A stretch of DNA of 23,452 nt from a virus (taxonomy: Duplodnaviria > Heunggongvirae > Uroviricota > Caudoviricetes): IMG/VR virus record IMGVR_UViG_2609460346_000013; one strand, given 5' to 3'. The notes under the pieces are model-generated. The model was not told where the DNA came from. It saw only the letters and a list, made by a program, of their open reading frames with translations, and searched no databases. Shown one piece after another: positions 982 to 23,452 of the stretch; position 1 is the first letter of the stretch, and the number at the start of each line of letters is the position of its first letter. Made by a program: the position numbers and the translations under genes.

Positions 982-1050
982 AAGAAAGCCCTCCGGCGCT
1001 GTATTCACCATCTTGGTAGCAAATGGTGAAAATGTAATCTTTATATAGAG

Positions 1051-5778: not shown

Positions 5779-6107
5779 ACGTCGCCAGTTGCGAAAATTA
5801 TTTACAGGGGGCAGCGTTAAGCATCTAAAGATCTTGTTCTATGATTAGAATGTTTCCTCGTTGCACTCTCGTATAGTTATTTAATGGGAAGATGTACTCT
5901 ATATGTTGTGTTTTGGTGATAAATGAAGCCAAAGGAAGGAGATTTTGCTTGATTGATGGGCGCTCTTTGCTATACACCTTGTATTGAGAAGGAGAAGTAA
6001 TCAAGGATTAAGCTGGCTTTTGTCAAAAATCTGAAAAGCTTTTTTGACTGAATACGATAGCGAGTTGTACTATTTGCGCCCTCAAAAGTAACCGGCGGCT
6101 GGGTAAA

Positions 6108-6482
6108 ATGGGGAAGCAAGGCAAAGGCAAAGGCAACAAAAATCAGGTTAAGGTTACGTGGGCTCAGGCGTGGCGGGATGTAATGATAAGAGCCATGTCT
6201 AATGGTCAGTTGATACCTATTACCATCAGTATTATTTTAATGATTGCTGCATGGAGGTTACCAAAAACAGACTTGTCCAATTTAGCCTTCTCTATTGTTG
6301 ATGGCTTTAAGGAGCATTCCTTGGTTGGTTGGGCTATCTCGGTAATAGTGGGTTTGGCTTGGTCTGCACATGCGCGAATCATGAGGCGCTGTTTTAGTTC
6401 CGAGGCACAGAGAATCGGTAACGAGAAAACAAAGTATCAACAAAGACAGACCACTCAAGCCTTGGGTACAAGTGATAAATAG
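6108..6482 (+). CDS. Small membrane protein with two predicted transmembrane helices (124 aa; start uncertain)
   Basis: Hydrophobic segments LIPITISIILMIAAW and LVGWAISVIVGLAW. Lies in the cargo island between A and cos. No recognised domain. Confidence 0.5.
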   Translation: MGKQGKGKGNKNQVKVTWAQAWRDVMIRAMSNGQLIPITISIILMIAAWRLPKTDLSNLAFSIVDGFKEHSLVGWAISVIVGLAWSAHARIMRRCFSSEAQRIGNEKTKYQQRQTTQALGTSDK

Positions 6483-6502
6483 TTGTTTATTTAGGAGTTA
6501 TT

Positions 6503-7060
6503 ATGCTGACAGTGCTGTTTTATGTGCTGTTGGGTTTAGGCGCAGCACACTTCATTTACGAGCGAATCATTTTGCCGTCCATCCGACTTCATTATAGAAA
6601 CCAATTGTTTGCGCTTCGTGATGTCGCTAGGAGGAAAATCATTGATGGAGGTTCCGATACTTCCATGCAAGCGGCAACACTTGTGCATGACTCATTGAAT
6701 AACGCTATCAATAGATTGCATTTACTCACGTTGCCAAACAAATTTCGTGCTCAAAAGCGTATGGCAGAAAACCATGCAATAAGGCAGAAAATTCGGCGTG
6801 AGATAGATGTTTTCAAACGCTGTGATGATAGAGAAGTTGTTGATGTACTGTTTAAATCCGGTCGGATACTTGAAAATGTACTGTTATTCAATAGCTTAAT
6901 GTTATTGCTTTACATGTTTCCATTTGTCCTTGCTGTATGGTTCTGTGTTAGGGTCATAAAGACAGCAAGTAGTTTAGTACAGTGGGTCAAAGGAAGAGAT
7001 TTAGAGGAAGCTATAATGCTGCTTCCTGATACTCAGGTTGAAAAGGTTGTATACGCATAA
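6503..7060 (+). CDS. Membrane protein with N- and C-terminal transmembrane helices (185 aa)
   Basis: AGGAG ribosome-binding site 6 nt upstream. Hydrophobic N-terminus (LTVLFYVLLGLGAAHFIY) and C-terminal helix (LLLYMFPFVLAVWFCVRVI). Followed directly by an intrinsic terminator. Confidence 0.6.
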   Translation: MLTVLFYVLLGLGAAHFIYERIILPSIRLHYRNQLFALRDVARRKIIDGGSDTSMQAATLVHDSLNNAINRLHLLTLPNKFRAQKRMAENHAIRQKIRREIDVFKRCDDREVVDVLFKSGRILENVLLFNSLMLLLYMFPFVLAVWFCVRVIKTASSLVQWVKGRDLEEAIMLLPDTQVEKVVYA

Positions 7061-7062
7061 AA

Positions 7063-7088
7063 ATCACCCCTTAGGGGGTGATTTTTTT
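7063..7088 (+). terminator. Rho-independent terminator
   Basis: 7-bp GC-rich stem (TCACCCC/GGGGTGA) with a TTAG loop, followed by a run of seven T. Confidence 0.8.
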
Positions 7089-7299
7089 ACATGACTTTTG
7101 ATTAGCTGACATTGTAAATCCGCATGTATCAGATGCATTGTTTTGCATGTGGAAATGGGTGTTTTCACTGCCAGCTATCGCTACATGTAGCAAAAACACG
7201 GGCTTAATAAGAAATCATTCTGCCATAAGGCATAACTTCCCCGCGTGCTCAGGTATTGACGTCATAGATATGGATCTTTTTTAATCAAGGTATGGTATT

Positions 7300-8247
7300 A
7301 TGAAGATATTTATTAGTTGGTCAGGTCAGGACAGCCTGGAGATAGCAAAAGTATTACGGGATTGGATACCGAATGTTATTCAAGTAGCTGAGCCGTACGT
7401 ATCAGCGGAAGATATTGATAAAGGCACTCGCTGGGCGACTGATATATCAAAGGAACTTGATGACTCTTCTTATGGGATTATTTGCCTTACAAAAAATAAT
7501 ATTAATGCACCGTGGATAAATTTTGAGGCGGGGGCTTTAGGTAAAAAGGTTGATAAGAGCCGGGTTAGTCCTTTCTTGTTTAAAATTAAACCATCTGAGA
7601 TAACAGGCCCAATATTACAATTCCAGTATACTCGTTCGGATGATAAGAACGATATTTTGAAGTTGATGTTGTCAATAAATAATCAAGCAGGATTTTTGAC
7701 TGAAGAACGCTTAACTAAAGCTTTCGAGCAATGGTGGCCAAGTTTAGAGCGTGAGTTAGATAACATTCAAGATATTAACCCTGTAGATAAAGATTCCACT
7801 AAAAAAACAAAAGGTGATTCGACTTCTGAGATACAAAATCTTTCCAAAATTGTTGAAAGTTTGCTGGATATTAGCCGAACAAATCACCAATTATTGCGTG
7901 ATCCAGCATCATTATTGCCAGAAGAATATGTTAGCAAAATAATAAACAGGGAAGGGCGTAAAGAAACTGTTTTAAAAATTGTAGCTTCTGATTTATTATC
8001 CATGCATCATTCACTAATTCGTGTAAAAAGAAGATTTATTCGTCGTGGTATTGATGAAACATCTAGGAGCGAGTTAATTGAATCATTAAATAAAATGATA
8101 ATGGATTGTTCTAGAGTAATCGCTCACTTAGATAATTATTGTGGGGCTTCATCAAACAATATGTTCAATAGTGCGCTTAGATTGCGGACCAGAAATTTAA
8201 TTGACATGATGGATGAGGAGGATGCAGAACGGGATGAAATGGAATAA
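7300..8247 (+). CDS. TIR-like domain protein with an uncharacterised C-terminal helical domain (315 aa)
   Basis: N-terminus MKIFISWSGQDS matches the TIR first-strand signature. Downstream ICLTKNNINAPWINFEAGAL fits the TIR W-x-x-E block that carries the catalytic glutamate. About 170 C-terminal residues have no recognised motif. Visibly AT-rich. Confidence 0.7.
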   Translation: MKIFISWSGQDSLEIAKVLRDWIPNVIQVAEPYVSAEDIDKGTRWATDISKELDDSSYGIICLTKNNINAPWINFEAGALGKKVDKSRVSPFLFKIKPSEITGPILQFQYTRSDDKNDILKLMLSINNQAGFLTEERLTKAFEQWWPSLERELDNIQDINPVDKDSTKKTKGDSTSEIQNLSKIVESLLDISRTNHQLLRDPASLLPEEYVSKIINREGRKETVLKIVASDLLSMHHSLIRVKRRFIRRGIDETSRSELIESLNKMIMDCSRVIAHLDNYCGASSNNMFNSALRLRTRNLIDMMDEEDAERDEME

Positions 8248-8791
8248 TCAATTTTGACTAATCATAAATAATTTTGCATATATAAACTTATAATGCCGCA
8301 GCCGCTATTTTTCAGCGGCTGTATATCGCTTATAATGGGTATGTTATTTTTATTTTGATAAAATCATTAAAATTGTCGATGTTATATGAATGCACATGTA
8401 TTATTAATGTTAGAAGATTATGCCTGCTTACGGCTATTGTGCTGAATTCAACTATGAACGCATCAGTATTAAAATCGTTCCATGAAATGTTCTTCGTCTA
8501 CAGCAGATGATGGGCAACGAAAAAATGACGCTGAGTGAGTTGGTCGGGGAGAATTGTTAGAGGTATTTATGGAGTGGTTTAATAATATCGGTCAATCCTG
8601 AGTTGCAGCATCACATAGACGATAGGGAATCTCTCCAGTCGTTCTGGAATGGCAGCGTTGAACAACAAGCACAGCGAGGCGTTAGATGCCCATCAGATTG
8701 ACACAGAGGGTTTATGAATCGCTGGGATTTACTTAGTTTGAAAAATAATATATTTATATGTTTTTGTATTGTGTTTGTTAAGGAGTTTGGA

Positions 8792-8998
8792 TTGAAAAGA
8801 AAACTGATTTGTGTTATGGCTTTTTGGGGGGCGTTGCTGGCTGGTTGTAATGAGAGTAATAAAAAAGAAGTTGAGGGTTGTATTGAAAGAGGTGTCCAAT
8901 ATTTTATAGAGATTGGTTCTTACCCTAAATTAAGTGATGGGCGTGATGCTGTAAAAGTTGCTACTGAACGTTGTAATAGAACAATAACGGCTTTCTGA
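8792..8998 (+). CDS. Small lipoprotein (about 68 aa from a TTG start; the ORF track's longer frame starts at 8714)
   Basis: AGGAG at 8781..8785 sits 6 nt before the TTG at 8792. Signal peptide with lipobox (KRKLICVMAFWGALLAGC). Stop is 2 nt before the next ATG. Confidence 0.5.
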   Translation: MKRKLICVMAFWGALLAGCNESNKKEVEGCIERGVQYFIEIGSYPKLSDGRDAVKVATERCNRTITAF

Positions 8999-9000
8999 TA

Positions 9001-9918
9001 ATGGATTATACGAGCTATATAATAGGACAGCTTCAGGTTGAGGATATTATTGATGCAATTAAAGGCGTTAATAATACTAATGTCATAAAAGATTATGTGC
9101 TGCCTGTAGTATTACCAATTATATCTTCTGTGCTGAGTTACTTTATTGCAACTAGGTTGTTTTATCGGCAGGAGTACCTTAAAGCACAAAGAAGAAAGGT
9201 AAGCGTTGTAAATAAATGTATTTATGACTACTTTTCTGCAATGACAACGTTGTTGCAAATTAAAGGGAATTATTATGGTGGGGTAAGTATAAGTGAAAAT
9301 CCTATCGAGAGGGCTTTAGCTTTTCCTGTTGTGGTTTTTTCTGGTGCTCCTCTATCATCAGATTTAAGTGAGTTGGCCTGTATATTGAGTCAAAAGGGAG
9401 TAGGGAATAATAGAGAGCCAGCAAAGACTACTAACTGGGGGGATGCTTTTGCTGTTAGTGATATAGCAAGAAGGTTTAACAGCCTATTGGCTGCATTAAA
9501 TGTTAGGAATGATTTTGATGACACCTATAGAGGAATGATTATTGAATCAACAGGTTCACCTTTGCCTACGATGCGTTTTAAAAATGATGATATTGTTAAT
9601 GCTATAGGTAGTAATAAGGCAGCTTATTACATTGATATTACTGAGCAAATAATGATTATGATAGATGTTTTGTTGCTTGATATTAATCTGTTGCTCAAAG
9701 AGTTGCCATTGTATGCTGAATCGCTGTTTGACAAAAGAGTAATGCAAGAAGATTCAGGGATTCTTAAATTCAATGATTTGCACGAACGTTTTCCTCTACT
9801 TATGAAACCTGTAACGCCACCTTCGATTAAACTCATGTCTGATTATTTGGGGTACAGTGAAGATGAGATCTTACGACGCTATCCATACCCGTTCTTTAAT
9901 ATGCATGATTGTGAATGA
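9001..9918 (+). CDS. Membrane-anchored hypothetical protein (305 aa, one N-proximal transmembrane helix)
   Basis: Hydrophobic segment VLPVVLPIISSVLSYFIATRLF. Tightly coupled to the upstream lipoprotein gene. AT-rich. No recognised domain. Confidence 0.6.
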   Translation: MDYTSYIIGQLQVEDIIDAIKGVNNTNVIKDYVLPVVLPIISSVLSYFIATRLFYRQEYLKAQRRKVSVVNKCIYDYFSAMTTLLQIKGNYYGGVSISENPIERALAFPVVVFSGAPLSSDLSELACILSQKGVGNNREPAKTTNWGDAFAVSDIARRFNSLLAALNVRNDFDDTYRGMIIESTGSPLPTMRFKNDDIVNAIGSNKAAYYIDITEQIMIMIDVLLLDINLLLKELPLYAESLFDKRVMQEDSGILKFNDLHERFPLLMKPVTPPSIKLMSDYLGYSEDEILRRYPYPFFNMHDCE

Positions 9919-10022
9919 ATGTGCATATGTCAGAAGCCGTTTTTATTGTCAGTTATCGTCAGTGCTGGCGCGCTCTTGGAGTGTTCATGCAACTGCATTA
10001 AAACCGCCCCACGAAGCGGGCG

Positions 10023-10198: not shown

Positions 10199-11233
10199 TC
10201 AGCCGTTGTCAGTGTCCAGTGAGTAGTTTTTAAAGCGGATGACCTCCTGACCGAGCCAGCCGTTTATTTCCCGAATCCTGTCCTGTAACGGGATAAGTTC
10301 ATTGCGGACAAAGACCTTTGCCACTTTCTCAATATCGCCCAGCGACCCGACGTTTTCCGGCTTGCCACCCATCAACTGAAAGGGGATGCGGTGCGCGTCC
10401 AGCAGGTCAGCGGCGCTGGCTTTTTTGATATTAAAAAAATCGTCCTTCGTGGCCACTTCACTGAGCGGGATAATTTTAATGCCGTCGGCTTTTCCCTGTG
10501 GGGCATAGAGAAACAGGTTTTTAAAGTTATTGCGGCCTTTCGACTTCACCATGTTTTCGCGGAGCATTTCGATATCGTTGCGATCCTGCACGGCATCAGT
10601 GACGTACATGATGTATCCGGCATGTGCGCCGTTTTCGTAATACTTGCGGCGGAACAGCGTGGCCGACTCATTCAGCCAGGCAGAGTTAAGGGCGCTGAGA
10701 TATTCCGGCAGACCGTACAGCTCCTGATTAATATCCGGCTCCAGCAGGTGAAACACGGAGCCGGGCGCGAAAGGTGTCGGCTCGTTGAAGGACGGCACCC
10801 ACCAGTAAACATCCTCCTCCACGCCACGGCGGGGATATTTTGCCGGTGAGGTTTCCAGTCTGATGACCTTACCGGTGGTGCTGTAACGCTTTTCCAGAAA
10901 CGCATTACCGAATACCAGAAAATCCAGCACAAAGCGGCTGAAATCCTGCTGAGAAAGCCACGGGTGTGGGATAAACGTTGAGGCCAGAATGTTACGTTTG
11001 ACGTAAATCGGTGAGCTGTGATGCACGGCAGCACGCAGGCTTTTTGCCAGACCGGTAAAGCTGACTGGTGGCTCATACCATCTGCCGTTACTGATGCACT
11101 CGACGTAATCCAGAATGTCACGGCGGTCGAGTACCGGCACCGGCTCACCAAAGGTGAATGCCTCCATTTTCGGGGCGCTGGCGGTCATTTTTTTTGCCGC
11201 AGGTTGCGGTGTTTTCCCTTTTTTCTTGCTCAT
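10199..11233 (-). CDS. Q: Portal protein, P2 gpQ-like (344 aa)
   Basis: Length identical to recalled P2 gpQ, with the lysine-rich MSKKKGKTPQPAAK N-terminus. Lies next to cos and is divergent from the lysis and tail genes. Confidence 0.9.
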   Translation of the reverse strand: MSKKKGKTPQPAAKKMTASAPKMEAFTFGEPVPVLDRRDILDYVECISNGRWYEPPVSFTGLAKSLRAAVHHSSPIYVKRNILASTFIPHPWLSQQDFSRFVLDFLVFGNAFLEKRYSTTGKVIRLETSPAKYPRRGVEEDVYWWVPSFNEPTPFAPGSVFHLLEPDINQELYGLPEYLSALNSAWLNESATLFRRKYYENGAHAGYIMYVTDAVQDRNDIEMLRENMVKSKGRNNFKNLFLYAPQGKADGIKIIPLSEVATKDDFFNIKKASAADLLDAHRIPFQLMGGKPENVGSLGDIEKVAKVFVRNELIPLQDRIREINGWLGQEVIRFKNYSLDTDNG

Positions 11234-11740
11234 CAGTAAAACTCCAGAATGGTGGATGTCAGCGGGGTGCTGATACCGGCGGTGAGTGGCTCATTTAACA
11301 GGGCGTGCATGGTCGCCCAGGCGAGGTCGGCGTGGCTGGCTTCCTCGCTACGGCTGGCCTCATAGGTGGCGCTGCGTCCGCTGCTGGTCATGGTCTTGCG
11401 GATAGCCATGAACGAGCTGGTGATGTCGGTGGCGCTGACGTCATATTCCAGACAGCCACGGCGGATGACGTCTTTTGCCTTGAGCACCATTGCGGTTTTC
11501 ATTTCCGGCGTGTAGCGGATATCGCGTGCGGCGGGATAGAACGAGCGCACGAGCTGGAACACGCCGACACCGAGGCCGGTGGCATCAATTCCGATGTATT
11601 CGACGTTGTATTTTTCGGTGAGTTTGCGGATGGATTCCGCCTGAGTGGCAAAGTCCATGCCTTTCCACTGGTGACGCTCAAGTATTCTGAATTTACCTCC
11701 GGCCACCACCGGCGGTGCCAGCACCACGCATCCGGCGCTG
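11233..11740 (-). pseudogene. P: Terminase ATPase subunit P, C-terminal fragment only (about 165 codons; N-terminal part deleted)
   Basis: The reading frame stops overlapping the Q start as in P2, but only about 165 codons remain instead of about 590. The upstream end abuts a truncated K on the opposite strand. Confidence 0.75.
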
Positions 11741-11743
11741 GCC

Positions 11744-12187
11744 GTGTCCGAAGGGACGGCGAATCATCCGCTGACGAAAAACCGGGGCTATGACGTGATA
11801 GTCACCGGACTGGACGGAAAGCCGGAAATTTTCACCGACTACAGTGACCACCCGTTCGCACATGGTCGACCGGCGAAGGTGTTTAACCGTCGCGGTGAAA
11901 AATCCACGGCCTCCGGTCGCTATCAGCAGCTTTACCTGTTCTGGCCGCATTACCGCAAACAGCTTGCCCTGCCGGATTTCAGTCCGTTGTCACAGGACAG
12001 GCTCGCCATTCAGTTGATCCGCGAACGCGGTGCACTGGATGACATCCGGGCGGGACGCATTGAGCGCGCCATTTCACGCTGTCGCAATATCTGGGCGTCC
12101 CTGCCGGGTGCCGGTTACGGTCAGCGTGAGCATCCACTGGAAAAACTGGTCACCGTCTGGCGTACCGCCGGCGGCGTACCGGCTTAA
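11744..12187 (+). pseudogene. K: Endolysin K (lambda R-like transglycosylase), N-terminally truncated with no native ATG
   Basis: The frame carries the SEGT block with the catalytic glutamate, then GYDVIV and WASLPGAGYGQ motifs of R/K-type lysozymes. The residues before LAVSEGT are unrelated, and only a GTG at 11744 with no ribosome-binding site could start it. Confidence 0.75.
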
Positions 12188-12201
12188 ACGGAGTAAACAC
12201 C

Positions 12202-12627
12202 ATGAAGAAATTATCCCTTTCACTGATGCTGAATGTGCCGCTGGCGCTGATGCTGGCACTGTCCCTGATTTACCCGCAGAGCGTGGCCGTCAGTTTTGTC
12301 GCCGCCTGGGCGATTCTGGCGACGGTTATCTGTGTGGTTGCCGGTGGTGTCGGCGTGTATGCCACTGAGTATGTGCTGGAACGCTACGGGCGGGAGCTGC
12401 CGCCGGAATCGCTGGCCGTGAAGATTGTCACGTCGCTGTTTTTGCAGCCGGTGCCGTGGCGCAGACGGGCAGTAGCTCTGGTGGTGATGGTGGCGACGTT
12501 TATCTCGCTGGTCGCTGCCGGGTGGATTTTTACCGCGCTGATTTATCTTGTGGCGTCGCTGTTTTTCCGGCTGATACGTAAAGCCTGCCGTCAGCGTTTT
12601 GAGGGGCGGGAACCATGTCAAAGCTGA
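12202..12627 (+). CDS. lysA: LysA-like lysis accessory membrane protein (141 aa)
   Basis: Multi-pass hydrophobic protein directly after K. Length identical to recalled P2 LysA. Confidence 0.75.
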   Translation: MKKLSLSLMLNVPLALMLALSLIYPQSVAVSFVAAWAILATVICVVAGGVGVYATEYVLERYGRELPPESLAVKIVTSLFLQPVPWRRRAVALVVMVATFISLVAAGWIFTALIYLVASLFFRLIRKACRQRFEGREPCQS

Positions 12628-13040
12628 TGATTGTGCTGGTTGTGCTGTTATCGCTGGCGGTGGCGGGGCTGTTTCTGGTGAAGCATGAAAACGCCAGCCT
12701 GCGCGCCTCGCTGGACAGGGCGAACAACGTCGCCAGTGAACAGCAGACGACCATCACCATGCTGCAAAATCAGCTTCATGTTGCCATCACCAGGGCAGAC
12801 AAAAACGAGCTGGCGCAGGTGGCACTGCGTCAGGAACTGGAGAACGCCGCGAAGCGTGAAGCACAGCGCGAGAAAACCATCACGAGGTTACTTAATGAAA
12901 ACGAAGATTTTCGCCGCTGGTATGGCGCTGACCTGCCTGATGCTGTGCGCCGGTTGCACCAGCGCCCCGCCTGCACCGACGCCAGTGATTGTCGCCAACG
13001 CCTGCCCGAAAGTGAGCCTTTGCCCGATGCCGGGCAGTGA
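12615..13040 (+). CDS. lysB: LysB, Rz-like inner-membrane spanin (141 aa)
   Basis: N-terminal transmembrane helix (MSKLMIVLVVLLSLAVAGLFLV) followed by a coiled-coil-like region. Position is as in P2. Confidence 0.75.
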   Translation: MSKLMIVLVVLLSLAVAGLFLVKHENASLRASLDRANNVASEQQTTITMLQNQLHVAITRADKNELAQVALRQELENAAKREAQREKTITRLLNENEDFRRWYGADLPDAVRRLHQRPACTDASDCRQRLPESEPLPDAGQ

Positions 13041-13185
13041 CCCGGAGACGAACGGCGATTTAAGTGCCGATATCCGGCAGCTTGAGAACGCGCTGGCACG
13101 TTGTGCCAGCCAGGTAAAAATGATTAAACACTGTCAGGACGAAAACGATGCTCAAACCCGACAGCCTGCGCAGGGCGCTGACTGA
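12895..13185 (+). CDS. lysC: LysC, Rz1-like outer-membrane lipoprotein spanin (96 aa), starting inside lysB in another frame
   Basis: An internal ATG at 12895 gives MKTKIFAAGMALTCLMLCAGC, a signal peptide with a lipobox, followed by a proline-rich segment. The frame overlaps the lysB 3' half and extends into R. Confidence 0.65.
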   Translation: MKTKIFAAGMALTCLMLCAGCTSAPPAPTPVIVANACPKVSLCPMPGSDPETNGDLSADIRQLENALARCASQVKMIKHCQDENDAQTRQPAQGAD

Positions 13186-13615
13186 TGCCGTCACGGTGCT
13201 GAAAACTAACCCCGATATGCTGCGGATATTCGTGGATAACGGGAGTATTGCCTCCACACTGGCGGCGTCGTTGTCATTCGAAAAGCGTTACACGCTCAAT
13301 GTCATTGTGACCGACTTTACCGGTGATTTTGACCTGCTCATCGTGCCGGTGCTGGCGTGGCTGCGGGAAAATCAGCCCGACATCATGACCACCGACGAAG
13401 GCCAGAAAAAGGGCTTCACGTTTTATGCAGACATCAACAATGACAGCAGCTTTGATATCAGTATCAGCCTGATGCTGACCGAGCGCACGCTGGTCAGTGA
13501 GGTTGACGGTGCGCTGCATGTGAAGAATATCCCGGAACCTCCGCCGCCGGAGCCAGTCAATCGCCCGATGGAGCTTTATATCAATGGTGAACTGGTGAGC
13601 AAGTGGGATGAATGA
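13148..13615 (+). CDS. R: Tail completion protein R (155 aa)
   Basis: Length and position match recalled P2 gpR. Confidence 0.8.
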   Translation: MLKPDSLRRALTDAVTVLKTNPDMLRIFVDNGSIASTLAASLSFEKRYTLNVIVTDFTGDFDLLIVPVLAWLRENQPDIMTTDEGQKKGFTFYADINNDSSFDISISLMLTERTLVSEVDGALHVKNIPEPPPPEPVNRPMELYINGELVSKWDE

Positions 13616-14060
13616 GTTTAAGCGTTTTGAAGACCGACTGACCGGACTGATTGAATCGCTGTCACCGTCTGGGCGTCGGCGACTGAGTGCAGAACTGGCG
13701 AAACGTCTGCGGCAGAGTCAGCAGCGTCGGGTGATGGCACAGAAAGCTCCGGACGGCACACCCTACGCACCACGCCAGCAGCAGAGCGCCAGAAAAAAGA
13801 CCGGTCGCGTTAAGCGAAAAATGTTTGCGAAACTTATCACCAGTCGTTTTTTGCATATCCGCGCCAGCCCTGAACAGGCATCAATGGAGTTTTACGGCGG
13901 GAAGTCACCGAAAATCGCCAGTGTGCATCAGTTCGGTCTGTCGGAAGAAACCCGGAAAGACGGTAAGAAAATTGATTATCCGGCGCGTCCTCTGCTCGGC
14001 TTTACCGGTGAGGATGTGCAGATGATTGAAGAGATTATCCTGGCTCACCTTGAGCGTTAG
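13608..14060 (+). CDS. S: Tail completion protein S (150 aa)
   Basis: ATGA overlap with R. Length matches recalled P2 gpS. Confidence 0.8.
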   Translation: MNEFKRFEDRLTGLIESLSPSGRRRLSAELAKRLRQSQQRRVMAQKAPDGTPYAPRQQQSARKKTGRVKRKMFAKLITSRFLHIRASPEQASMEFYGGKSPKIASVHQFGLSEETRKDGKKIDYPARPLLGFTGEDVQMIEEIILAHLER

Positions 14061-14090
14061 TTTTATCCAGACAGAGGCTGATGCGCAATT

Positions 14091-14125
14091 AAACATTGAG
14101 CGGCCATGCTGGTCGCTCAATGTTT
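14091..14125. terminator. Hairpin between convergent S and the antisense cargo gene (12-bp perfect inverted repeat AAACATTGAGCG / CGCTCAATGTTT); probable bidirectional terminator
   Basis: Inverted repeat read directly, with an 11-nt loop. On the minus strand it is followed by a U-rich stretch (UUUAAUU). No clean U-run on the plus strand. Confidence 0.5.
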
Positions 14126-14131
14126 AGAGGT

Positions 14132-14917
14132 TTATGAGTGATTTTTATTTGATGCTTTGTATTCTAAAACCTTCTTATTGGCGTAAAAGAATTTTGTATA
14201 TGACAGGAATATAACCAGACCTGAAGTGAAATAGACGAGGGATAGTATTAATAATGCTTTTTTGCGACTGTTATTATCTTTAATCTCCAGGCTTAACCAT
14301 TCGGAGTCCTCCTCGTTTAGCTGTAAGAGCTTATTGCAGGCGATTTCAGGAAGTGTGTCTTTTATAAATACGTTTTGCAGTCTCTTGCAATCGGCAAGGC
14401 TATAAGTTTTATTAAATTCAACTGCTTTATTTTTGAAGGATAAAAGAACTTTGTCACTATAAACATAGTACATCATGTTTTTATATGGTATGCCTATGGC
14501 ATCCCTTACTATAACGGATTGTTCGTTGTGTATGTAACATGCGAGGAGAATGTAAAAAATACTGGCCAGAATTACAATTATTGTTTTAATTATGTGTGGT
14601 GGTTTTGTTATGTCACCCCAGATGCGAGTAAGGAAAAAATACGATGTTTTTAGTTTTCCATCAATCAGTCCCTGCTGTATCATTCTCACATTTTCAATGC
14701 CTGATACATTGATTCCGTTAATTATTTTAAATAGTTGAATGTCGCGCCACTCGCGGTCAAGTCTTTTTAATTTTTTGTCTGAATATCCAAAATTGAAATA
14801 ATGTGCAATAAGCCTCATAAGGTTACTTTTACCAAAGCTAAAAAATGCTAATACTGCAAAGCTACAAAGGAAAAAAACGATTAGCCCCCACACATTAGTC
14901 ACATTATAGCTGACCAT
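14132..14917 (-). CDS. Multi-pass membrane protein, cargo gene antisense to the tail operon (261 aa)
   Basis: Strong AAGGAGA ribosome-binding site on the minus strand 8 nt before the ATG at 14917. Hydrophobic helices at the N-terminus, middle and C-terminus. Very AT-rich. Occupies the position of the antisense orf30 between S and V in P2. Confidence 0.7.
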   Translation of the reverse strand: MVSYNVTNVWGLIVFFLCSFAVLAFFSFGKSNLMRLIAHYFNFGYSDKKLKRLDREWRDIQLFKIINGINVSGIENVRMIQQGLIDGKLKTSYFFLTRIWGDITKPPHIIKTIIVILASIFYILLACYIHNEQSVIVRDAIGIPYKNMMYYVYSDKVLLSFKNKAVEFNKTYSLADCKRLQNVFIKDTLPEIACNKLLQLNEEDSEWLSLEIKDNNSRKKALLILSLVYFTSGLVIFLSYTKFFYANKKVLEYKASNKNHS

Positions 14918-15000
14918 TACGCTCTCCTTGAATGTTGTCTGGTAGTTCTACAAATGAATCCAGATAGCATAACTTTTATATATTGTGCAATCTCACATGC

Positions 15001-15636
15001 ATGAACACTCTCGCAAATATTCAGGAACTCGCGCGCGCACTGCGCAACATGATTCGCACCGGCATTATCGTCGAAACCGACCTTAACGCCGGTCGCTGCC
15101 GCGTGCAGACCGGCGGCATGTGCACCGACTGGCTTCAGTGGCTGACCCATCGCGCCGGTCGTTCGCGCACATGGTGGGCACCTTCCGTGGGGGAACAGGT
15201 GCTGATTCTGTCCGTGGGCGGTGAACTCGACACGGCGTTTGTTCTGCCGGGGATTTATTCCGGCGATAATCCCGCGCCGTCTGCGTCGGCGGATGCCCTG
15301 CATATCCGTTTCCCTGACGGGGCGGTGATTGAGTATGAACCCGAAACCAGTGCGCTCACGGTAAGCGGAATTAAAACGGCCAGCGTGACGGCTTCCGGTT
15401 CTGTTACTGCCACTGTGCCGGTGGTCATGGTGAAAGCGTCAACCCGCATCACCCTGGACACACCGGAGGTGGTCTGCACCAACAGGCTGATTACCGGCAC
15501 GCTGGAAGTGCAGAAGGGCGGGACGATGCGCGGCAACATTGAACACACCGGCGGTGAACTCTCATCAAACGGTAAGGTACTGCATACCCATAAACACCCC
15601 GGCGACAGCGGCGGCACAACCGGGAGTCCTCTATGA
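15001..15636 (+). CDS. V: Baseplate spike protein V (211 aa from MNTLANIQ)
   Basis: Length matches recalled P2 gpV. The ORF track's earlier TTG start at 14983 is unlikely. Confidence 0.85.
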   Translation: MNTLANIQELARALRNMIRTGIIVETDLNAGRCRVQTGGMCTDWLQWLTHRAGRSRTWWAPSVGEQVLILSVGGELDTAFVLPGIYSGDNPAPSASADALHIRFPDGAVIEYEPETSALTVSGIKTASVTASGSVTATVPVVMVKASTRITLDTPEVVCTNRLITGTLEVQKGGTMRGNIEHTGGELSSNGKVLHTHKHPGDSGGTTGSPL

Positions 15637-15980
15637 CAGCGCGTTATCTCGGAATGAATCGCAGTGATGGCCTGACGGTCACTGACCTTGAGCATATCAG
15701 CCAGAGTATCGGCGATATCCTGCGCACACCGGTCGGCTCACGGGTGATGCGCCGTGATTACGGCTCGTTGCTGGCGTCAATGATTGACCAGCCGCAGACC
15801 CCGGCGCTTGAGTTGCAGATTAAGGTCGCCTGTTACATGGCGGTGCTGAAATGGGAACCCCGCGTCACCCTGTCATCCGTCACCACGGCGCGCAGTTTTG
15901 ACGGGCGAATGACGGTCACGTTAACCGGTCAGCACAACGACACCGGTCAGCCACTTTCGTTAACCATCCCTGTGAGTTGA
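15633..15980 (+). CDS. W: Baseplate wedge protein W (115 aa)
   Basis: ATGA overlap with V. Length matches recalled P2 gpW. Confidence 0.85.
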   Translation: MTARYLGMNRSDGLTVTDLEHISQSIGDILRTPVGSRVMRRDYGSLLASMIDQPQTPALELQIKVACYMAVLKWEPRVTLSSVTTARSFDGRMTVTLTGQHNDTGQPLSLTIPVS

Positions 15981-15984
15981 AACC

Positions 15985-16893
15985 ATGCCGATTATCGACC
16001 TGAACCAGCTACCCGCACCGGATGTGGTCGAGGAGCTGGACTTTGAAACCATTCTTGCCGAACGCAAGGCGACACTGATTTCCCTTTACCCGGAAGACCA
16101 GCAGGAGGTGGTCGCCCGTACCCTGACGCTGGAATCGGAGCCTCTCGTCAAACTGCTGGAAGAAAATGCTTATCGTGAGCTTATCTGGCGTCAGCGTGTG
16201 AATGAGGCCGCACGGGCGGTGATGCTGGCCTGTGCCGCCGGTAATGACCTTGATGTGATTGGTGCCAATTACAACACCACACGCCTGATTATCATCCCGG
16301 CAGATGATTCGACCATCCCGCCGACACCGGCAGTGATGGAATCTGACACCGATTATCGTCTGCGTATTCAGCAGGCGTTTGAAGGTTTAAGCGTTGCCGG
16401 GTCGGTGGGAGCCTATCAGTATCATGGTCGCAGTGCCGACGGGCGTGTCGCGGATATCTCTGTCACCAGTCCGTCTCCGGCCTGTGTCACTATCTCCGTG
16501 CTGTCCCGAGAAAATAACGGTGTCGCATCCGAAGACCTGCTGGCTGTGGTGCGTAACGCTCTTAATGGCGAGGACGTCAGGCCGGTGGCTGACCGTGTGA
16601 CCGTGCAGTCTGCCGCCATTGTTGAATACCAGATAAACGCCACGCTGTATCTTTACCCTGGTCCAGAAAGCGAACCCATCCGCGCCGCCGCCGTGAAAAA
16701 ACTGGAAGCGTACATCACGGCACAGCACCGGCTGGGGCGCGACATCCGTCTGTCTGCCATTTATGCCGCTTTGCATGTGGAAGGCGTGCAGCGTGTCGAA
16801 CTGACTGCACCGCTGGCTGACATCGTGCTCAACAGTACGCAGGCGTCTTTCTGCACCGAATACAGCGTCGTGACCGGAGGCTCGGATGAGTGA
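15985..16893 (+). CDS. J: Baseplate protein J (302 aa)
   Basis: Length matches recalled P2 gpJ. Gene order V-W-J-I is conserved. Confidence 0.85.
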   Translation: MPIIDLNQLPAPDVVEELDFETILAERKATLISLYPEDQQEVVARTLTLESEPLVKLLEENAYRELIWRQRVNEAARAVMLACAAGNDLDVIGANYNTTRLIIIPADDSTIPPTPAVMESDTDYRLRIQQAFEGLSVAGSVGAYQYHGRSADGRVADISVTSPSPACVTISVLSRENNGVASEDLLAVVRNALNGEDVRPVADRVTVQSAAIVEYQINATLYLYPGPESEPIRAAAVKKLEAYITAQHRLGRDIRLSAIYAALHVEGVQRVELTAPLADIVLNSTQASFCTEYSVVTGGSDE

Positions 16894-17416
16894 TTCGCGA
16901 CTGCTGCCGACCGGCTCATCACCGCTTGAGGTCGCCGCCGCAAAAGCCTGTGCGGAAATTGAAAAAACACCGGTCAGTATTCGTGAGCTGTGGAACCCGG
17001 ACTCCTGTCCGGCAAATCTGCTGCCGTGGCTGGCGTGGGCGTTTTCGGTCGACAGGTGGGATGAAAAGTGGCCGGAAGCGACAAAACGCGCCGTTATCCG
17101 CGATGCCTATTTCATCCACTGTCATAAAGGCACTATCGGCGCAATCCGACGCGTGGTGGAGCCGCTCGGCTATCTCATCAACGTGACGGAGTGGTGGGAA
17201 AACAGTGACCCGCCCGGCACCTTCCGGCTTGATATTGGTGTACTGGAAAGCGGTATCACAGAGGCAATGTATCAGGAAATGGAACGGCTGATTGCCGATG
17301 CCAAACCTGCAAGCCGCCACCTTATTGGCCTGAACATTACCCGGGACATTCCCGGCTATCTGTTCGCCGGTGGTGTGGCTTACGACGGCGATGTAATTAC
17401 GGTTTACCCCGGATAA
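16886..17416 (+). CDS. I: Baseplate protein I (176 aa)
   Basis: Overlaps the J stop by 8 nt. Length matches recalled P2 gpI. Confidence 0.85.
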   Translation: MSDSRLLPTGSSPLEVAAAKACAEIEKTPVSIRELWNPDSCPANLLPWLAWAFSVDRWDEKWPEATKRAVIRDAYFIHCHKGTIGAIRRVVEPLGYLINVTEWWENSDPPGTFRLDIGVLESGITEAMYQEMERLIADAKPASRHLIGLNITRDIPGYLFAGGVAYDGDVITVYPG

Positions 17417-17426
17417 GTGAGGAATA

Positions 17427-19472
17427 ATGAGCATAAAATTCAGAACCGTTATCACCACTGCCGGTGCAGCAAAGCTGGCAGCGGCAACCGCGCCGGGAGG
17501 GCGGAAGGTCAACATTACCACGATGGCCGTCGGGGATGGCGGTGGTAAATTGCCTGTCCCGGATGCCGGACAGACCGGGCTTATCCATGAAGTCTGGCGA
17601 CATGCGCTGAACAAAATCAGCCAGGACAAACGAAACAGTAATTATATTATCGCCGAGCTGGTTATTCCGCCGGAGGTGGGCGGTTTCTGGATGCGTGAGC
17701 TTGGCCTGTACGATGATGCGGGAACATTAATTGCCGTGGCGAACATGGCCGAAAGTTATAAGCCAGCTCTTGCCGAAGGCTCAGGGCGTTCGCAGACCTG
17801 TCGCATGGTCATCATCGTCAGCAGTGTGGCCTCAGTGGAGCTGACCATTGACACCACAACGGTGATGGCGACTCAGGATTACGTTGATGACAAAATTGCA
17901 GAGCATGAACAGTCACGACGTCACCAGGACGCCTCGCTGACCGCAAAAGGTTTTACTCAGTTAAGCAATGCGACCAACAGCACGTCTGAAACACTGGCCG
18001 CAACGCCGAAAGCGGTTAAGGCCGCATATGACCTTGCTAACGGGAAATATACCGCACAGGACGCTACCACAGCGCGAAAAGGTCTTGTCCAGCTAAGTAG
18101 TGCGACCAACAGCATATCTGAAACGCTCGCCGCAACACCAAAAGCCGTTAAGACGGTAATGGATGAAACGAACAAGAAAGCGCCATTAAACAGCCCTGCA
18201 CTGACCGGAACGCCAACGACGCCAACTGCGCGACAGGGAACGAATAATACTCAGATCGCAAACACGGCTTTCGTTATGGCCGCGATTGCCGCCCTTGTAG
18301 ACTCGTCGCCTGACGCACTGAATACGCTGAACGAGCTGGCGGCGGCGCTGGGCAATGACCCGAATTTTGCTACCACCATGACTAATGCGCTTGCGGGTAA
18401 GCAACCGAAAGATGCCACTTTGACGGCGCTGGCGGGGCTTGCTACTGCGGCAGACAGGTTTCCGTATTTTACGGGGAATGATGTTGCCAGCCTGGCGACC
18501 CTGACAAAAGTCGGGCGGGATATTCTGGCTAAATCGACCGTTGCCGCTGTTATCGAATATCTCGGTTTACAGGAAACGGTAAACCGAGCCGGGAACGCCG
18601 TGCAAAAAAATGGCGATACTTTGTCCGGCGGGCTTACTTTTGAAAACGACTCAATCCTTGCCTGGATTCGAAATACTGACTGGGCGAAGATTGGATTTAA
18701 AAATGATGCCGATGGTGACACTGATTCATATATGTGGTTTGAAACAGGTGACAACGGCAATGAATATTTCAAATGGAGAAGTCGCCAGAGCACCACAACA
18801 AAAGACCTGATGAATCTTAAATGGGATGCTCTGTATGTTCTTGTTAAAGCCCTTTTCAGCAGTGAAGTAAAAATATCTACAGTCAATGCACTGAGGATAT
18901 TTAATTCATCTTTTGGGGCTATTTTTCGCCGTTCTGAAGAAAACCTGTATATCATTCCTACACGAGAAAATGAGGGTGAAAATGGAGATATTGGGCCATT
19001 AAGGCCATTCGGCATCAACTTAAGAACAGGAGTTGTGTCTGTTGGTAATGGTGCCAGGATTGATGGCGGGCTGGCACTTGGCACGAATAACGCGTTGGGT
19101 GGGAACTCTATTGTTCTTGGTGATAACGACACCGGATTTAAACAAAATGGCGATGGTAATCTGGATGTTTATGCTAATAACGTCCATGTTATGCGCTTTG
19201 TTTCCGGAAGCATTCAAAGTAATAAGACCATAAATATTACGGGGCGTGTTAATCCCTCGGATTACGGTAACTTTGATTCCCGCTATGTGAGAGATATCAG
19301 ACTTGGCACACGTGTTGTCCAGACCATGCAGAAAGGGGTGATGTATGAGAAAGCAGGGCACGTAATTACCGGGCTTGGTATTGTCGGTGAAGTCGATGGT
19401 GATGACCCCGCAGTATTCAGGCCAATACAAAAATACATCAATGGCACATGGTATAACGTCGCACAGGTGTAA
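17427..19472 (+). CDS. H: Tail fibre protein H (681 aa)
   Basis: GAGGAA ribosome-binding site. Conserved P2-H-type N-terminus (MSIKFRTVITTAGAAKLAAA). Internal repeated SATNS-SETLAATPKAVK motif. The C-terminal third is visibly AT-richer. Confidence 0.85.
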   Translation: MSIKFRTVITTAGAAKLAAATAPGGRKVNITTMAVGDGGGKLPVPDAGQTGLIHEVWRHALNKISQDKRNSNYIIAELVIPPEVGGFWMRELGLYDDAGTLIAVANMAESYKPALAEGSGRSQTCRMVIIVSSVASVELTIDTTTVMATQDYVDDKIAEHEQSRRHQDASLTAKGFTQLSNATNSTSETLAATPKAVKAAYDLANGKYTAQDATTARKGLVQLSSATNSISETLAATPKAVKTVMDETNKKAPLNSPALTGTPTTPTARQGTNNTQIANTAFVMAAIAALVDSSPDALNTLNELAAALGNDPNFATTMTNALAGKQPKDATLTALAGLATAADRFPYFTGNDVASLATLTKVGRDILAKSTVAAVIEYLGLQETVNRAGNAVQKNGDTLSGGLTFENDSILAWIRNTDWAKIGFKNDADGDTDSYMWFETGDNGNEYFKWRSRQSTTTKDLMNLKWDALYVLVKALFSSEVKISTVNALRIFNSSFGAIFRRSEENLYIIPTRENEGENGDIGPLRPFGINLRTGVVSVGNGARIDGGLALGTNNALGGNSIVLGDNDTGFKQNGDGNLDVYANNVHVMRFVSGSIQSNKTINITGRVNPSDYGNFDSRYVRDIRLGTRVVQTMQKGVMYEKAGHVITGLGIVGEVDGDDPAVFRPIQKYINGTWYNVAQV

Positions 19473-19475
19473 TTT

Positions 19476-20003
19476 ATGCAGCATTTAAAAAATATTACTG
19501 CGGGTAATCCAAAAACTGTTGCCCAATATCAACTGACAAAAAATTTTGATGTTATCTGGTTATGGTCCGAAGAGGGAAAAAACTGGTATGAGGAAGTAAG
19601 TAATTTTCAGGAAGACACGATAAAGATTGTTTACGACGAGAATAATATAATTGTCGGCATCACCAGAGATGCTTCAACGCTTAACCCTGAAGGTTTCAGC
19701 GTTGTCGAGGTTCCTGATATTACCTCCAACCGACGTGCTGATGACTCAGGTAAATGGATGTTTAAGGATGGTGCCGTGATTAAGCGGATTTATACGGCAG
19801 ATGAACAGGAGCAACAGGCAGAATCACAAAAAGCAGCTTTACTTTCCGAAGCGGAAAGCGTTATTCAGCCACTGGAACGCGCTGTCAGGCTGAATATGGC
19901 GACGGATGAGGAATGCGCACGACTGGAGTCATGGGAACGCTACAGCGTTCTGATCAGCCGTGTGGATCCTGCAAATCCTGAATGGCCGGAAATGCCGCAA
20001 TAA
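19476..20003 (+). CDS. G: Tail fibre assembly chaperone G (175 aa)
   Basis: Directly downstream of H. Length matches recalled P2 gpG. Confidence 0.8.
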
Positions 20004-20224
20004 GTTGTATAAGCTCTGGTGTGAGATTACATATCTATGGCACAGAGTAAAGCCTAATCTGACAGGCCGCTCTGTGTCTGGAGTAGATTTTAGTAAAGCA
20101 TTATTTTATTAGTGCAAATTCTAATCAATACATTTTATGTATATGATATCCTACGGACTTTAATGACTTGGTTTAGGCTAACCAGATAACACTGAAGGAA
20201 TATTTTTGATAATTAAGGTGCGGT

Positions 20225-20818
20225 ATGTTTACTAAGCGACGATTAAAAAATATTAACTGGGAGGCAAGTTCAGTGATTCTTGCTATGGTTCTCTTTGTTG
20301 GAAATATATTTTATACAAATCATCGTGATGATATAAGCATGGAGGCTGAGAGGGACAGTATCAGAACAATGTTTGCATATGAAATCGCTAATAACCATCG
20401 CGCTCTCACTTTTCTTGATAAAACGAGACATATTGGCTTTGACGAAAATTCGGAGCATTTTGTTGGCGAGCCTTTTGCCATTAATGTCAAATCATTAGGG
20501 GGACCTCGCTTACAGATTGCATTAAACCAGACTGATAAAGTGTTTAAATCCTACTTCGGCGAATTAAGTAAGCTTGATAAAGAGGATGTTACTCTTCTTA
20601 TGGACTATTACCATGAGCAAAGCATCCTGCTGGAGCGTGTAAAATCTACGTTACAGAAGATGAAAAGTGGTAATGATATTAAAGTTGATATTGATGGTTG
20701 CTTATTAGAAGAACACTTCATGAATGAGCTTAATCTTTCTAATATTTTGCTTAAACGCTATAGCTATTTATTATCACAACACGCTAAGGAACATAAAACA
20801 AAAGATTTACATAATTGA
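20225..20818 (+). CDS. N-terminally membrane-anchored hypothetical protein (197 aa), cargo gene at the P2 Z/fun position
   Basis: AAGGTG ribosome-binding site. One N-terminal hydrophobic helix (SSVILAMVLFVGNIFY), then a soluble domain with no recognised motif. AT-rich. Confidence 0.6.
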   Translation: MFTKRRLKNINWEASSVILAMVLFVGNIFYTNHRDDISMEAERDSIRTMFAYEIANNHRALTFLDKTRHIGFDENSEHFVGEPFAINVKSLGGPRLQIALNQTDKVFKSYFGELSKLDKEDVTLLMDYYHEQSILLERVKSTLQKMKSGNDIKVDIDGCLLEEHFMNELNLSNILLKRYSYLLSQHAKEHKTKDLHN

Positions 20819-21044
20819 TAATCTGCTAATGGTTATTCATGGGGTAACTATGTTTTATATGTAATCCAGCCCAGATGAATTATTGATTCTGGATAATAAC
20901 CGCAGAGCGGCATATACCCTGACAGGCAAATGTCCGCTTCTTGCTCAAAGCAGACTGTCAGATTTGATAACTTTTGGGCTATGTAAACTGTCAGTCGGAA
21001 AATGAGTGTGTACAAATCAGGACAGGCGGGGGGAATTGCCCCCA

Positions 21045-21066
21045 TTTTTTTTTTTTTTTTTTTTTT
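21045..21066. repeat. Homopolymeric tract of 22 consecutive T, preceded by an imperfect GC hairpin (GGGGGGAATTGCCCCC)
   Basis: Counted directly. Lies between the cargo gene and the FI remnant. Confidence 0.9.
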
Positions 21067-21148
21067 CCACTGACCAGCCAGGTCAAATAGCGTCTCATGT
21101 ACTACCCAACGGAAAATAGTTGCACCCATTAACCACGGAGTTAAACGG

Positions 21149-21262
21149 ATGAGTGACTATCATCACGGCGTGCAGGTGCTGGAGATTAACGACGGCACCC
21201 GCGTCATTTCCACCGTATCCACAGCCATTGTCGGCATGGTCTGCACGGCTAGCCTCCCGTAA
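21149..21262 (+). pseudogene. FI: Tail sheath FI, N-terminal 37-codon remnant
   Basis: [35 protein letters not shown] matches the recalled P2 FI N-terminus, then runs into a stop after two more codons. Confidence 0.75.
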
Positions 21263-22013
21263 CAGGCTGGAAGCCAGTGTCGCTCCGTCACTGGCCGGAA
21301 TTAAAATCCCGCACATCGACCAGTCGCAGGAGTCCGATGCGAAATTCCTGACCCGTCTTGCTGAACGCAACGGCGGTGAGGTGTCGGTAAAAATGGGAAA
21401 ACTGCTGTTTCTCAAAGCGGGGCAGGGGGGGACGGTCAGCGGTAAAAAAATCCCGCAGATTACCATCACCCGCAGCGACGGCGACCGTCATCATTTTGCG
21501 ATTGCTGACCGTGGAGCCTACACAGGCGTAACGGCAAAGTGGTTACACACCAAAGACCCGAAGCCGCAAAAGCAGAAGGTAAAACTGAAACGCAAAAAGA
21601 AAGAGAAACACCTGCGCGCACTGGAGCACCCGAAAGCGAAACCGGTCACGCAGAAGAAAGAGCCAAAAGTACCGGAAGCGCGCGAAGGTGAATACATGGC
21701 CGGTGAGGCTGACAACGTTTTTGCCCTGACCACGGTATATGCCACGAAAGCACAGGCCATGCGCGCCGCTCAGGCGAAGTGGGATAAACTGCAACGGGGT
21801 GTTGCGGAGTTCTCCATCAGCCTGGCTACTGGTCGGGCAGATATTTACACGGAAACGCCGGTCAGAGTGTCAGGCTTTAAGCGCGTCATAGACGAGCAGG
21901 ACTGGACAATCACTAAGGTGACACATTTTCTGAATAATAGCGGCTTCACGACGTCCCTGGAGCTTGAGGTCAGGCTTTCTGATGTGGAGTACGAAACAGA
22001 AGATGATGAGTGA
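21263..22013 (+). pseudogene. D: Tail protein D, C-terminal fragment (about 240 codons), fused out of frame to the FI remnant
   Basis: The frame carries D-like C-terminal sequence (IPHIDQSQESDAKFLTRLAERNGGEVS ... lysine-rich linker ... RLSDVEYETEDDE). Its first about 36 codons in the ORF track are an out-of-frame read of FI. The exact junction lies within about 21255..21300. Confidence 0.7.
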
Positions 22014-22094
22014 TGTAATTTATTTATCTGTTTGTTTTATAAGGATAAATTAACTAAAATGGCACCATCAACAAAACCGGAAGAGGTGCTCGCG

Positions 22095-22313
22095 ATGTTT
22101 CATTGTCCTTTATGCCAGCATGCCGCACATGCGCGTACAAGCCGCTATATCACTGACACGACAAAAGAGCGTTATCACCAGTGTCAGAACGTGAATTGCA
22201 GCGCCACGTTCATCACTTATGAGTCGGTACAGCGATACATCGTGAAGCCGGGAGAAGTCCATGCCGTAAGGCCGCACCCGTTGCCGTCAGGACAGCAAAT
22301 TATGTGGATGTAA
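22095..22313 (+). CDS. ogr: Late-gene transcriptional activator Ogr (zinc finger, 72 aa from MFHCPLCQH)
   Basis: CxxC...CxxxxC zinc-binding pattern (CPLCQH...CQNVNC). Length and N-terminus match recalled P2 Ogr. It is the last prophage gene before host DNA. Confidence 0.9.
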   Translation: MFHCPLCQHAAHARTSRYITDTTKERYHQCQNVNCSATFITYESVQRYIVKPGEVHAVRPHPLPSGQQIMWM

Positions 22314-22323
22314 TCACAAAAAT

Positions 22324-22350
22324 AGCCCCTCAGTTGAGGGGCTTTATTTA
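22324..22350 (+). terminator. Rho-independent terminator after ogr
   Basis: 8-bp stem AGCCCCTC/GAGGGGCT with a 4-nt loop, followed by a U-rich tail (TTTATTTA). Confidence 0.75.
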
Positions 22351-22441
22351 TGGTCGATGTGGACGCTATGTGGACAGCGTTTGATATAAATCCATTTATA
22401 TCATCAGGTTAGGTGCTTTTTTGTGACACCATCCCTGTCTT

Positions 22442-22468
22442 CCCCCACATGATGTGGGGGTTTTTTTT
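22442..22468 (+). terminator. Rho-independent terminator, probably host-derived
   Basis: CCCCCACA/TGTGGGGG stem followed by eight T. Confidence 0.7.
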
Positions 22469-22549
22469 ATCCTCAATTTGCCTGCTGCTTAATGCATTGC
22501 AGATGATTTGCTTCCGTTATACTACCGTCAGTTGATAGCGGGAGTATTT

Positions 22550-23452
22550 ATGAATCAATCTTATGGACGGCTGGTCAGTCGGGCGGCGATTGCTGCGACG
22601 GCGATGGCTTCGCTGCTATTGCTGATTAAAATTTTTGCATGGTGGTATACCGGGTCGGTGAGTATTCTCGCCGCGCTGGTGGATTCGCTGGTGGATATCG
22701 GCGCGTCGTTGACGAATTTACTGGTGGTGCGATATTCCCTGCAACCTGCCGACGATAATCACTCGTTTGGTCACGGTAAAGCTGAGTCCCTCGCGGCGCT
22801 GGCGCAAAGTATGTTTATCTCCGGTTCGGCACTATTCCTGTTTTTGACGGGTATTCAACATCTGGTATCTCCAACACCGATGACAGATCCAGGCGTCGGG
22901 GTTATCGTGACAATTGTGGCGCTAATTTGTACGATTATCCTTGTCTCGTTTCAGCGTTGGGTGGTGCGCCGGACGCAAAGCCAGGCGGTGCGGGCTGATA
23001 TGCTACATTACCAGTCTGATGTTATGATGAACGGCGCAATTCTGCTGGCGCTGGGGTTGTCCTGGTACGGCTGGCATCGCGCCGATGCTCTGTTTGCATT
23101 GGGGATCGGCATCTATATTTTATATAGCGCGTTACGCATGGGATATGAGGCGGTACAGTCATTACTGGATCGCGCATTGCCTGATGAGGAACGGCAAGAA
23201 ATTATTGATATCGTGACTTCCTGGCCGGGTGTTAGCGGCGCTCACGATCTTCGCACGCGGCAGTCAGGGCCGACCCGCTTTATTCAGATTCATTTGGAAA
23301 TGGAAGACTCTCTGCCTTTGGTTCAGGCACATATGGTGGCGGATCAGGTAGAGCAGGCTATTTTACGGCGTTTTCCGGGATCGGATGTGATTATCCATCA
23401 GGACCCCTGTTCCGTCGTACCCAGGGAGGGTAAACGGTCTATGCTTTCATAA
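22550..23452 (+). CDS. fieF: Cation diffusion facilitator family Fe/Zn efflux transporter FieF (YiiP), 300 aa
   Basis: Starts [35 protein letters not shown] and carries the CDF signature with multiple transmembrane helices. Matches the enterobacterial FieF sequence as I recall it. GGGAG ribosome-binding site upstream. The stop is the last codon of the window. Confidence 0.9.

Follow-up and report, generated by a model that had tools for sequence, protein, structure and literature searches.

The window, that is, the whole 23,452-nt stretch of DNA that we analyzed, holds a P2-like prophage that carries two internal deletions and adjoins the host gene fieF. BLAST comparison with P2 (NC_001895), P2_AC1 and the intact prophage of Escherichia coli M21816 revealed a collinear arrangement with two breaks, at 11737-11740 and 21250-21253. 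The gene order is that of P2, and the fieF-adjacent site is also occupied by intact prophages in E. coli M21816, in RM11911 and in a sibling genome described below (L015). Both deletions have removed genes for virion formation. We regard the element, as judged from its gene content, as a defective prophage devoid of the sheath, the tube, the tape measure and a complete hub. The principal features are as follows.

1-1011, minus strand: integrase gene
near 10022/10023: cos
21028-21066, plus strand: terminator-like hairpin and T22 run upstream of FI' (hairpin detection, assembly comparison)
21059-21076, plus strand: position of the Ogr/delta activator dyad of the late promoter PF (alignment to the P2-annotated site)
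21137-21140, plus strand: Shine-Dalgarno GGAG of FI, 8 nt upstream of ATG 21149 (read from the sequence)
21149-21262, plus strand: FI' remnant ORF, ATG start, 37 codons, TAA at 21260-21262
21153-22013, plus strand: chimeric ORF, GTG start, 286 codons (33 codons of FI DNA in the +1 frame, then D residues 135-387)
21250-22013, plus strand: 'D remnant, D nt 401-1164, native stop included
22095-22313, plus strand: ogr late-gene activator, intact; Pfam Ogr_Delta (zinc-finger protein), E = 2e-21
22324-22343, plus strand: terminator hairpin downstream of ogr (hairpin detection), counterpart of the P2 terminator 24265-24288
22550-23452: host gene fieF

At the first break (11737-11740), P nt 1266 (minus strand) is joined to K nt 48 (plus strand) with a GCTG microhomology. 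Relative to P2, 5,315 bp are lost there, including the N-terminus of P, the PP and PO promoters, O, N, M, L, X, the holin gene Y and the start of K. What remains of the terminase gene P is an ORF at 11233-11727 encoding only the C-terminal Terminase_6C part. The prophage still keeps int, C/cox, the replication genes, cos, the portal gene Q, the baseplate and fibre genes, R/S, ogr and its accessory genes. Together, the two deletions are expected to abolish head building, tail building and lysis, and the defective prophage would be passed on vertically.

Accessory genes were observed in two places. Three ORFs of 124, 185 and 315 aa at 6108-8247, the P2 tin/old slot, match PADLOC 2TM-TIR, 1TM-TIR and TIR-TM with E-values of 2e-58 to 2e-118; the 315-aa ORF has a Pfam TIR_2 match in addition. 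The defective prophage has thus kept a candidate system of anti-phage defence. A 197-aa ORF (20225-20818) with no Pfam or PADLOC match lies between G and FI, in the Z/fun slot, and its RefSeq counterparts are named "lysogenic conversion protein" in M21816, A36 and E956 and "hypothetical protein" in RM11911 and S3. The Z/fun slot of E. coli ZH177 holds PIN-domain and SIR2-family genes.

The FI-D junction and the interval lost

A search for proteins identical to the 197-aa product of ORF 20225-20818, which lies nearby, led us to a sibling prophage in GCA_024706755.1 (JANPXH010000003.1, loci L012/L015; hereafter L015). It represents what is essentially the same phage in intact form (99.9% identity) and occupies the homologous site at fieF. 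None of M, L, X, Y, K and FI through D is disrupted in L015, whose identity to the window is 99.87% between 11737 and 21253; its low identity on the right side is confined to the host gene fieF. The FI-D break is the sole interruption of the collinearity of the window with P2, P2_AC1, M21816 and L015 at 21249-21253.

To the left of approximately 21253, the DNA corresponds to the FI start of these four relatives, and from 21250 onward it corresponds to D. By BLAST, the FI homology extends to FI nt 105 on the left side and the D homology begins at D nt 401 on the right side. A three-way alignment with the intact L015 and M21816 placed the join at 21249/21250, where FI nt 101 passes into D nt 401. 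At this point, L015, P2, M21816, RM11911 and S3 read ...ACGGC-C-AGC-GATGCG in FI and ...GGCGA-T-AGC-CTCCCG in D, and the window reads ...ACGGC-T-AGC-CTCCCG. In FI, the base at this position is C in each of these five intact relatives; the T at 21250 therefore derives from D. The AGC that follows (21251-21253) is common to both parental sequences, and the junction spans 21250-21253 if it is counted. A 4-nt microhomology, TAGC, indicated by the BLAST overlaps, was rejected on the same ground. Measured against the near-identical L015, the missing interval is 5,438 bp.

The preliminary description of this DNA had proposed an out-of-frame fusion of the FI start with the C-terminal two-thirds of D, and comparison with four intact relatives, including L015, verified this arrangement. 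Its statement that the sheath body, the tube, the tape measure and associated genes have been removed agrees with the P2 annotation, according to which FI from codon 34/36 on, FII (tube), E, E+E', T (tape measure), U and D codons 1-134 are gone. D homology downstream of 21263, on which that reading depended, is present, and neither FI nor D is intact. However, the junction had been predicted within 21255-21300 and lies slightly upstream of that range. Similarly, the first 37 codons of the sheath gene had been described as intact; an ORF of 37 codons does exist, but only 35 of its residues belong to FI, and codons 36-37 are D DNA.

Expression of the FI' and 'D remnants

The FI' peptide consists of 35 residues identical to the sheath N-terminus, followed by Leu-Pro from the out-of-frame D DNA and a stop. 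No Pfam domain was found in the FI' ORF, which retains 35 of the 396 sheath residues and does not amount to a sheath domain; the sheath of the intact siblings carries Gp18_domIII_N, Phage_sheath_1 and Phage_sheath_1C. The GGAG Shine-Dalgarno is conserved in P2, M21816, RM11911 and S3. Because it stands 8 nt from ATG 21149, the 37-residue peptide is the expected translation product of the FI start, and ribosomes starting there would halt at 21260-21262.

The 'D remnant is longer. D residues 135-387 (253 of 387, 65%) are readable from 21252, and 'D is 99.7% identical to D of L015 and M21816, with 2 mismatches in 764 nt versus L015. Residues 35-263 of the chimeric ORF match positions 106-304 of the 305-position Pfam profile Phage_GPD (PF05954) at E = 3e-19, with 69.8 bits against a cut-off of 30.1, which places the sequence in this family. 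The complete hub domain is not present, as profile positions 1-105 are absent and D nt 1-400 are gone. The missing N-terminal 134 residues of D align to the R2 pyocin hub chain 6u5h_C; thus, a conserved part of the hub is missing from 'D. The hub partner proteins of 'D are all gone as well.

A GTG-initiated chimeric ORF at 21153-22013 had been noted in the preliminary description as a possible source of a D-like polypeptide. The ORF exists, with 286 codons in the +1 frame, but its proposed product is not supported, given that the Shine-Dalgarno is placed for ATG 21149 and no good alternative start is available. GTG 21153 overlaps the FI' reading frame, being 4 nt inside the FI' ORF and 12 nt after GGAG, and none of the other in-frame starts (TTG 21228, GTG 21381 and ATG 21393) has a well-placed Shine-Dalgarno. 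The two routes to D translation, its own start or coupling to U as in P2, are both missing, for U and the D start are deleted, and there is no in-frame start near the FI' stop that would permit coupling. We also considered a programmed +1 frameshift from FI' into 'D and discarded it, since CTC CCG TAA offers no slippery or stop-adjacent motif for re-pairing of the P-site tRNA. Translation of 'D is therefore unlikely on the available signals; lacking its own start and ribosome-binding site, 'D would stay untranslated. FI' and 'D are most likely pseudogene remnants, and we suggest that the ORF 21153-22013 be annotated as a pseudogene rather than as a "late control D family protein".

Existing annotations of the sister assemblies are inconsistent at this locus: 286 aa in L017, 37 aa plus 261 aa in L011 and L016, and no gene in L009/L014. 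The 261-aa call in L011 and L016 starts at the equivalent of TTG 21228. An exact-protein look-up of the 286-aa ORF of the window returned no match, which is likely explained by the L017 call having V194 where the window has G194, and by the assemblies with G194 being called as 37 plus 261 aa. Relative to D of L015, the window differs at V194G and A196V. Among the six deleted copies, A196V occurs in five, V194G in the window, L011 and L016, A284V in L010 and A196G in L011. All of these amino-acid differences are nonsynonymous, which would fit relaxed constraint, although the numbers are tiny.

Transcription of the P2 F operon is driven by PF, an Ogr-dependent promoter whose activator site is annotated in P2 at 17555-17583, with the transcription start at 17626-17628, 24-26 nt before FI. 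The consensus of the Ogr activator site is TGT-N12-ACA (PMC3931495). At the PF dyad, the relatives and the sister assemblies have TGT-N12-CCA, whereas the window has TTT-N12-CCA owing to the T22 run, so that a TGT-N12-ACA-like dyad centred approximately 55 nt upstream of the transcription start was not found in the window. A sigma-70 consensus scan of 20700-22500 gave no promoter; none was expected, because the late promoter is activator-dependent. The ogr gene and the D-ogr spacer, in which the P2 annotation puts the ogr promoter, are 100% identical to those of L015 and M21816 and were untouched by the deletion. In P2, the terminator at 24265-24288 serves both the ogr transcript and the F operon. 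The Rfam gathering scan of the whole window yielded no match. With PF intact in the sister assemblies, an FI'-'D transcript is likely to be made there whenever Ogr or a satellite activator is present.

The T22 run belongs to a cluster of changes that is private to the window. Hairpin detection identified GGGGGGAATTGCCCCC followed by a T run at 21028-21066, where the five sisters and the intact L015 read GGCGGGCGAATTGCCCGCATTTTCTTTATCTGTTGTTTCAT. The window is identical to its sister L016 across 13.2 kb (10225-23452) except for this cluster at 21028-21065, in which a G insertion, C>G, G>C and seven replacements by T, 10 changes in all, convert GGCGGGCGAATTGCCCGC-ATTTTCTTTATCTGTTGTTTCAT to GGCGGGGGGAATTGCCCCC-A(T)22. 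Every change extends a homopolymer. The hairpin is retained, and the upstream half-site of the PF activator dyad is erased (TGT to TTT). The G6/C5 hairpin variant is absent from the sister assemblies and relatives, and a query covering 20985-21046, with T22 outside the query, had no full-length match above 95.2% in the 5,426 complete E. coli genomes. A scan of viral_contigs with a pattern of at least 15 T gave 0 matches. The cluster is probably a local sequencing or consensus artefact of the source assembly. If it were real, it would be a private complex mutation that further silences the remnant operon.

An alternative reading is that a truncated D polypeptide is made, from GTG 21153, TTG 21228 or an internal start, and may poison the hub assembly of superinfecting P2-like phages, the Ogr of the incoming phage turning on PF. 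We consider this reading distinctly unlikely. The D-frame long ORF is open in all six copies examined, ogr is intact, PF and its activator dyad are intact in the sister assemblies, and gene callers at times predict a 261- or 286-aa product. However, an open D-frame ORF is expected anyway after a deletion too recent for it to be informative, and the features described above weigh against a functional product: the Shine-Dalgarno serves ATG 21149, the competing starts have no good ribosome-binding site, the first third of the hub profile (positions 1-105) is absent, the activator half-site of the window is TTT, and every amino-acid difference from L015 is nonsynonymous. The more specific proposal that FI'-'D is a retained decoy, in which Ogr or delta from a P2-like phage or a P4-like satellite fires PF and truncated gpD (135-387) poisons the hub or baseplate of the invader, appears to us very improbable. 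If true, it would add to the 2TM-1TM-TIR defence genes of the prophage, and the prophage, with its two deletions, would have been domesticated under selection and would not be neutral debris.

Origin and spread of the deletion

Overall, the locus very probably represents a fixed 5,438-bp deletion in the late tail operon (FI FII E E' T U D), brought about by ordinary decay, with remnants that are untranslated pseudogenes. As L015 matches both flanks and carries the interval, a simple intra-prophage deletion suffices. The endpoints share no repeat and only three bases, at most an imperfect microhomology, which suggests RecA-independent illegitimate recombination or replication slippage; FI nt 101 and D nt 401 would have been brought together by such recombination with end joining, or by slippage.

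It could also be argued that the fusion arose by illegitimate recombination between two P2-like elements, for example, lysogens in tandem, or a D'-ogr remnant and a phage entering its host. On the left, identity to M21816 and P2_AC1 is 97.3%, against 99.8-99.9% for the right side, and D'-ogr remnants are known at P2 attachment sites, for example, PR-X of K-12. Nevertheless, L015 is near-perfect on both sides with the whole interval between them, so that one parent explains the flanks; a different ancestry of the two flanks was dropped for this reason, and we regard a two-element origin as highly improbable compared with a deletion within one prophage.

The deletion is not restricted to the window. 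A 33-mer spanning the junction was found in five independent NCBI draft assemblies (GCA_052502265.1, GCA_043407555.1, GCA_000713035.1, GCA_000714375.1 and GCA_054724725.1; loci L009/L014, L010, L011, L016 and L013/L017). The neighbouring 197-aa gene occurs on 24 contigs, one of them intact and the other 23 with the deletion. The two loci whose sequence extends upstream as far as the first deletion, L014 and L016, show its junction as well, and no single-deletion intermediate was seen among the sampled assemblies. Neither deletion junction is present in any of the 5,426 complete E. coli genomes, in which the sole full-coverage match, ZH177, proved to carry a different deletion. An exact-junction 33-mer scan of genome_contigs (species-representative) and metagenome_contigs gave 0 matches. 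We take the FI-D deletion, by its recurrence in these assemblies, to be a real allele that is fixed in the lineage and inherited together with the first deletion. That the junction reflects faulty assembly, through a mis-join or a collapsed contig, is hardly credible: the odd private homopolymer cluster approximately 185 nt upstream hints at local errors in the source assembly and the complete genomes lack the junction, but the same 33-mer stands in five other independently deposited assemblies, the join shares at most 3 nt, far too little for an assembler mis-join, and outside the cluster the flanking DNA agrees fully with L016 across 13.2 kb.

The fieF-pfkA region of the L015 host is at most 90.1% identical to any of the 5,426 E. 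coli genomes, and this host is probably another Escherichia species. If so, horizontal spread of the phage would be recent and would predate its inactivation in the E. coli lineage. The intact sibling and the approximately 23 deletion-bearing contigs provide a before-and-after case of recent decay by homology-independent deletion, and the pair could be used to study the speed and order in which P2-like prophages are disabled while defence genes are kept.

Comparison with known P2-like elements

The intact F operon of P2 (NC_001895), M21816, RM11911 and GCA_024706755.1 shares with the window the promoter region, the Shine-Dalgarno, the FI start, the D 3' part, ogr and the terminator, at 85-100% nucleotide identity. 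In contrast to the window, it contains the 5,438 bp from FI nt 101 to D nt 401, and the reading frames differ. Independent FI-D truncations were found at the following positions.

L003 (E. coli S3): 7149-9184
L008 (ZH177): 5020-6413
L007 (K-12): 5603-5821

As in the window, the deletions of S3 and ZH177 start within FI and extend to D or its vicinity, so that FI' and ogr remain. In S3, however, FI nt 756 is joined within U, 119 nt upstream of D, and in ZH177, FI nt 366 is joined to D nt 135; both prophages occupy the yegR-trhP site. Judging by these endpoints and by the integration site, the deletions of S3, ZH177 and the window are separate events. PR-X of K-12 (the yegZ pseudogene and ogrK) resembles the window in that a C-terminal fragment of D is followed directly by an intact ogr at the attR end of a decayed P2-like prophage. 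It differs in that only D nt 950-1164 of the phage are left, at the yegQ(trhP)-yegR site, whereas the window retains D nt 401-1164 and approximately 22 kb of prophage next to fieF. The recurrence of independent deletions in S3, ZH177 and K-12 PR-X supports ordinary decay, and the comparison shows, at the level of the genomes aligned here, that the FI-to-D interval is lost recurrently while ogr is kept.

The deletion allele itself was already present in public assemblies but apparently has not been discussed, and the finding is of little import beyond annotation. Defective P2-like prophages, and D' remnants beside ogr, are already well known, and the window is another instance. Sp13 of O157 Sakai is a defective P2-like prophage that has lost most morphogenetic genes and kept its early functions (PMC2669165). 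Whereas Sp13 is without nearly all structural genes, the prophage in the window keeps its baseplate, fibre, R/S and portal genes and has been interrupted by two deletions of approximately 5.3-5.4 kb.
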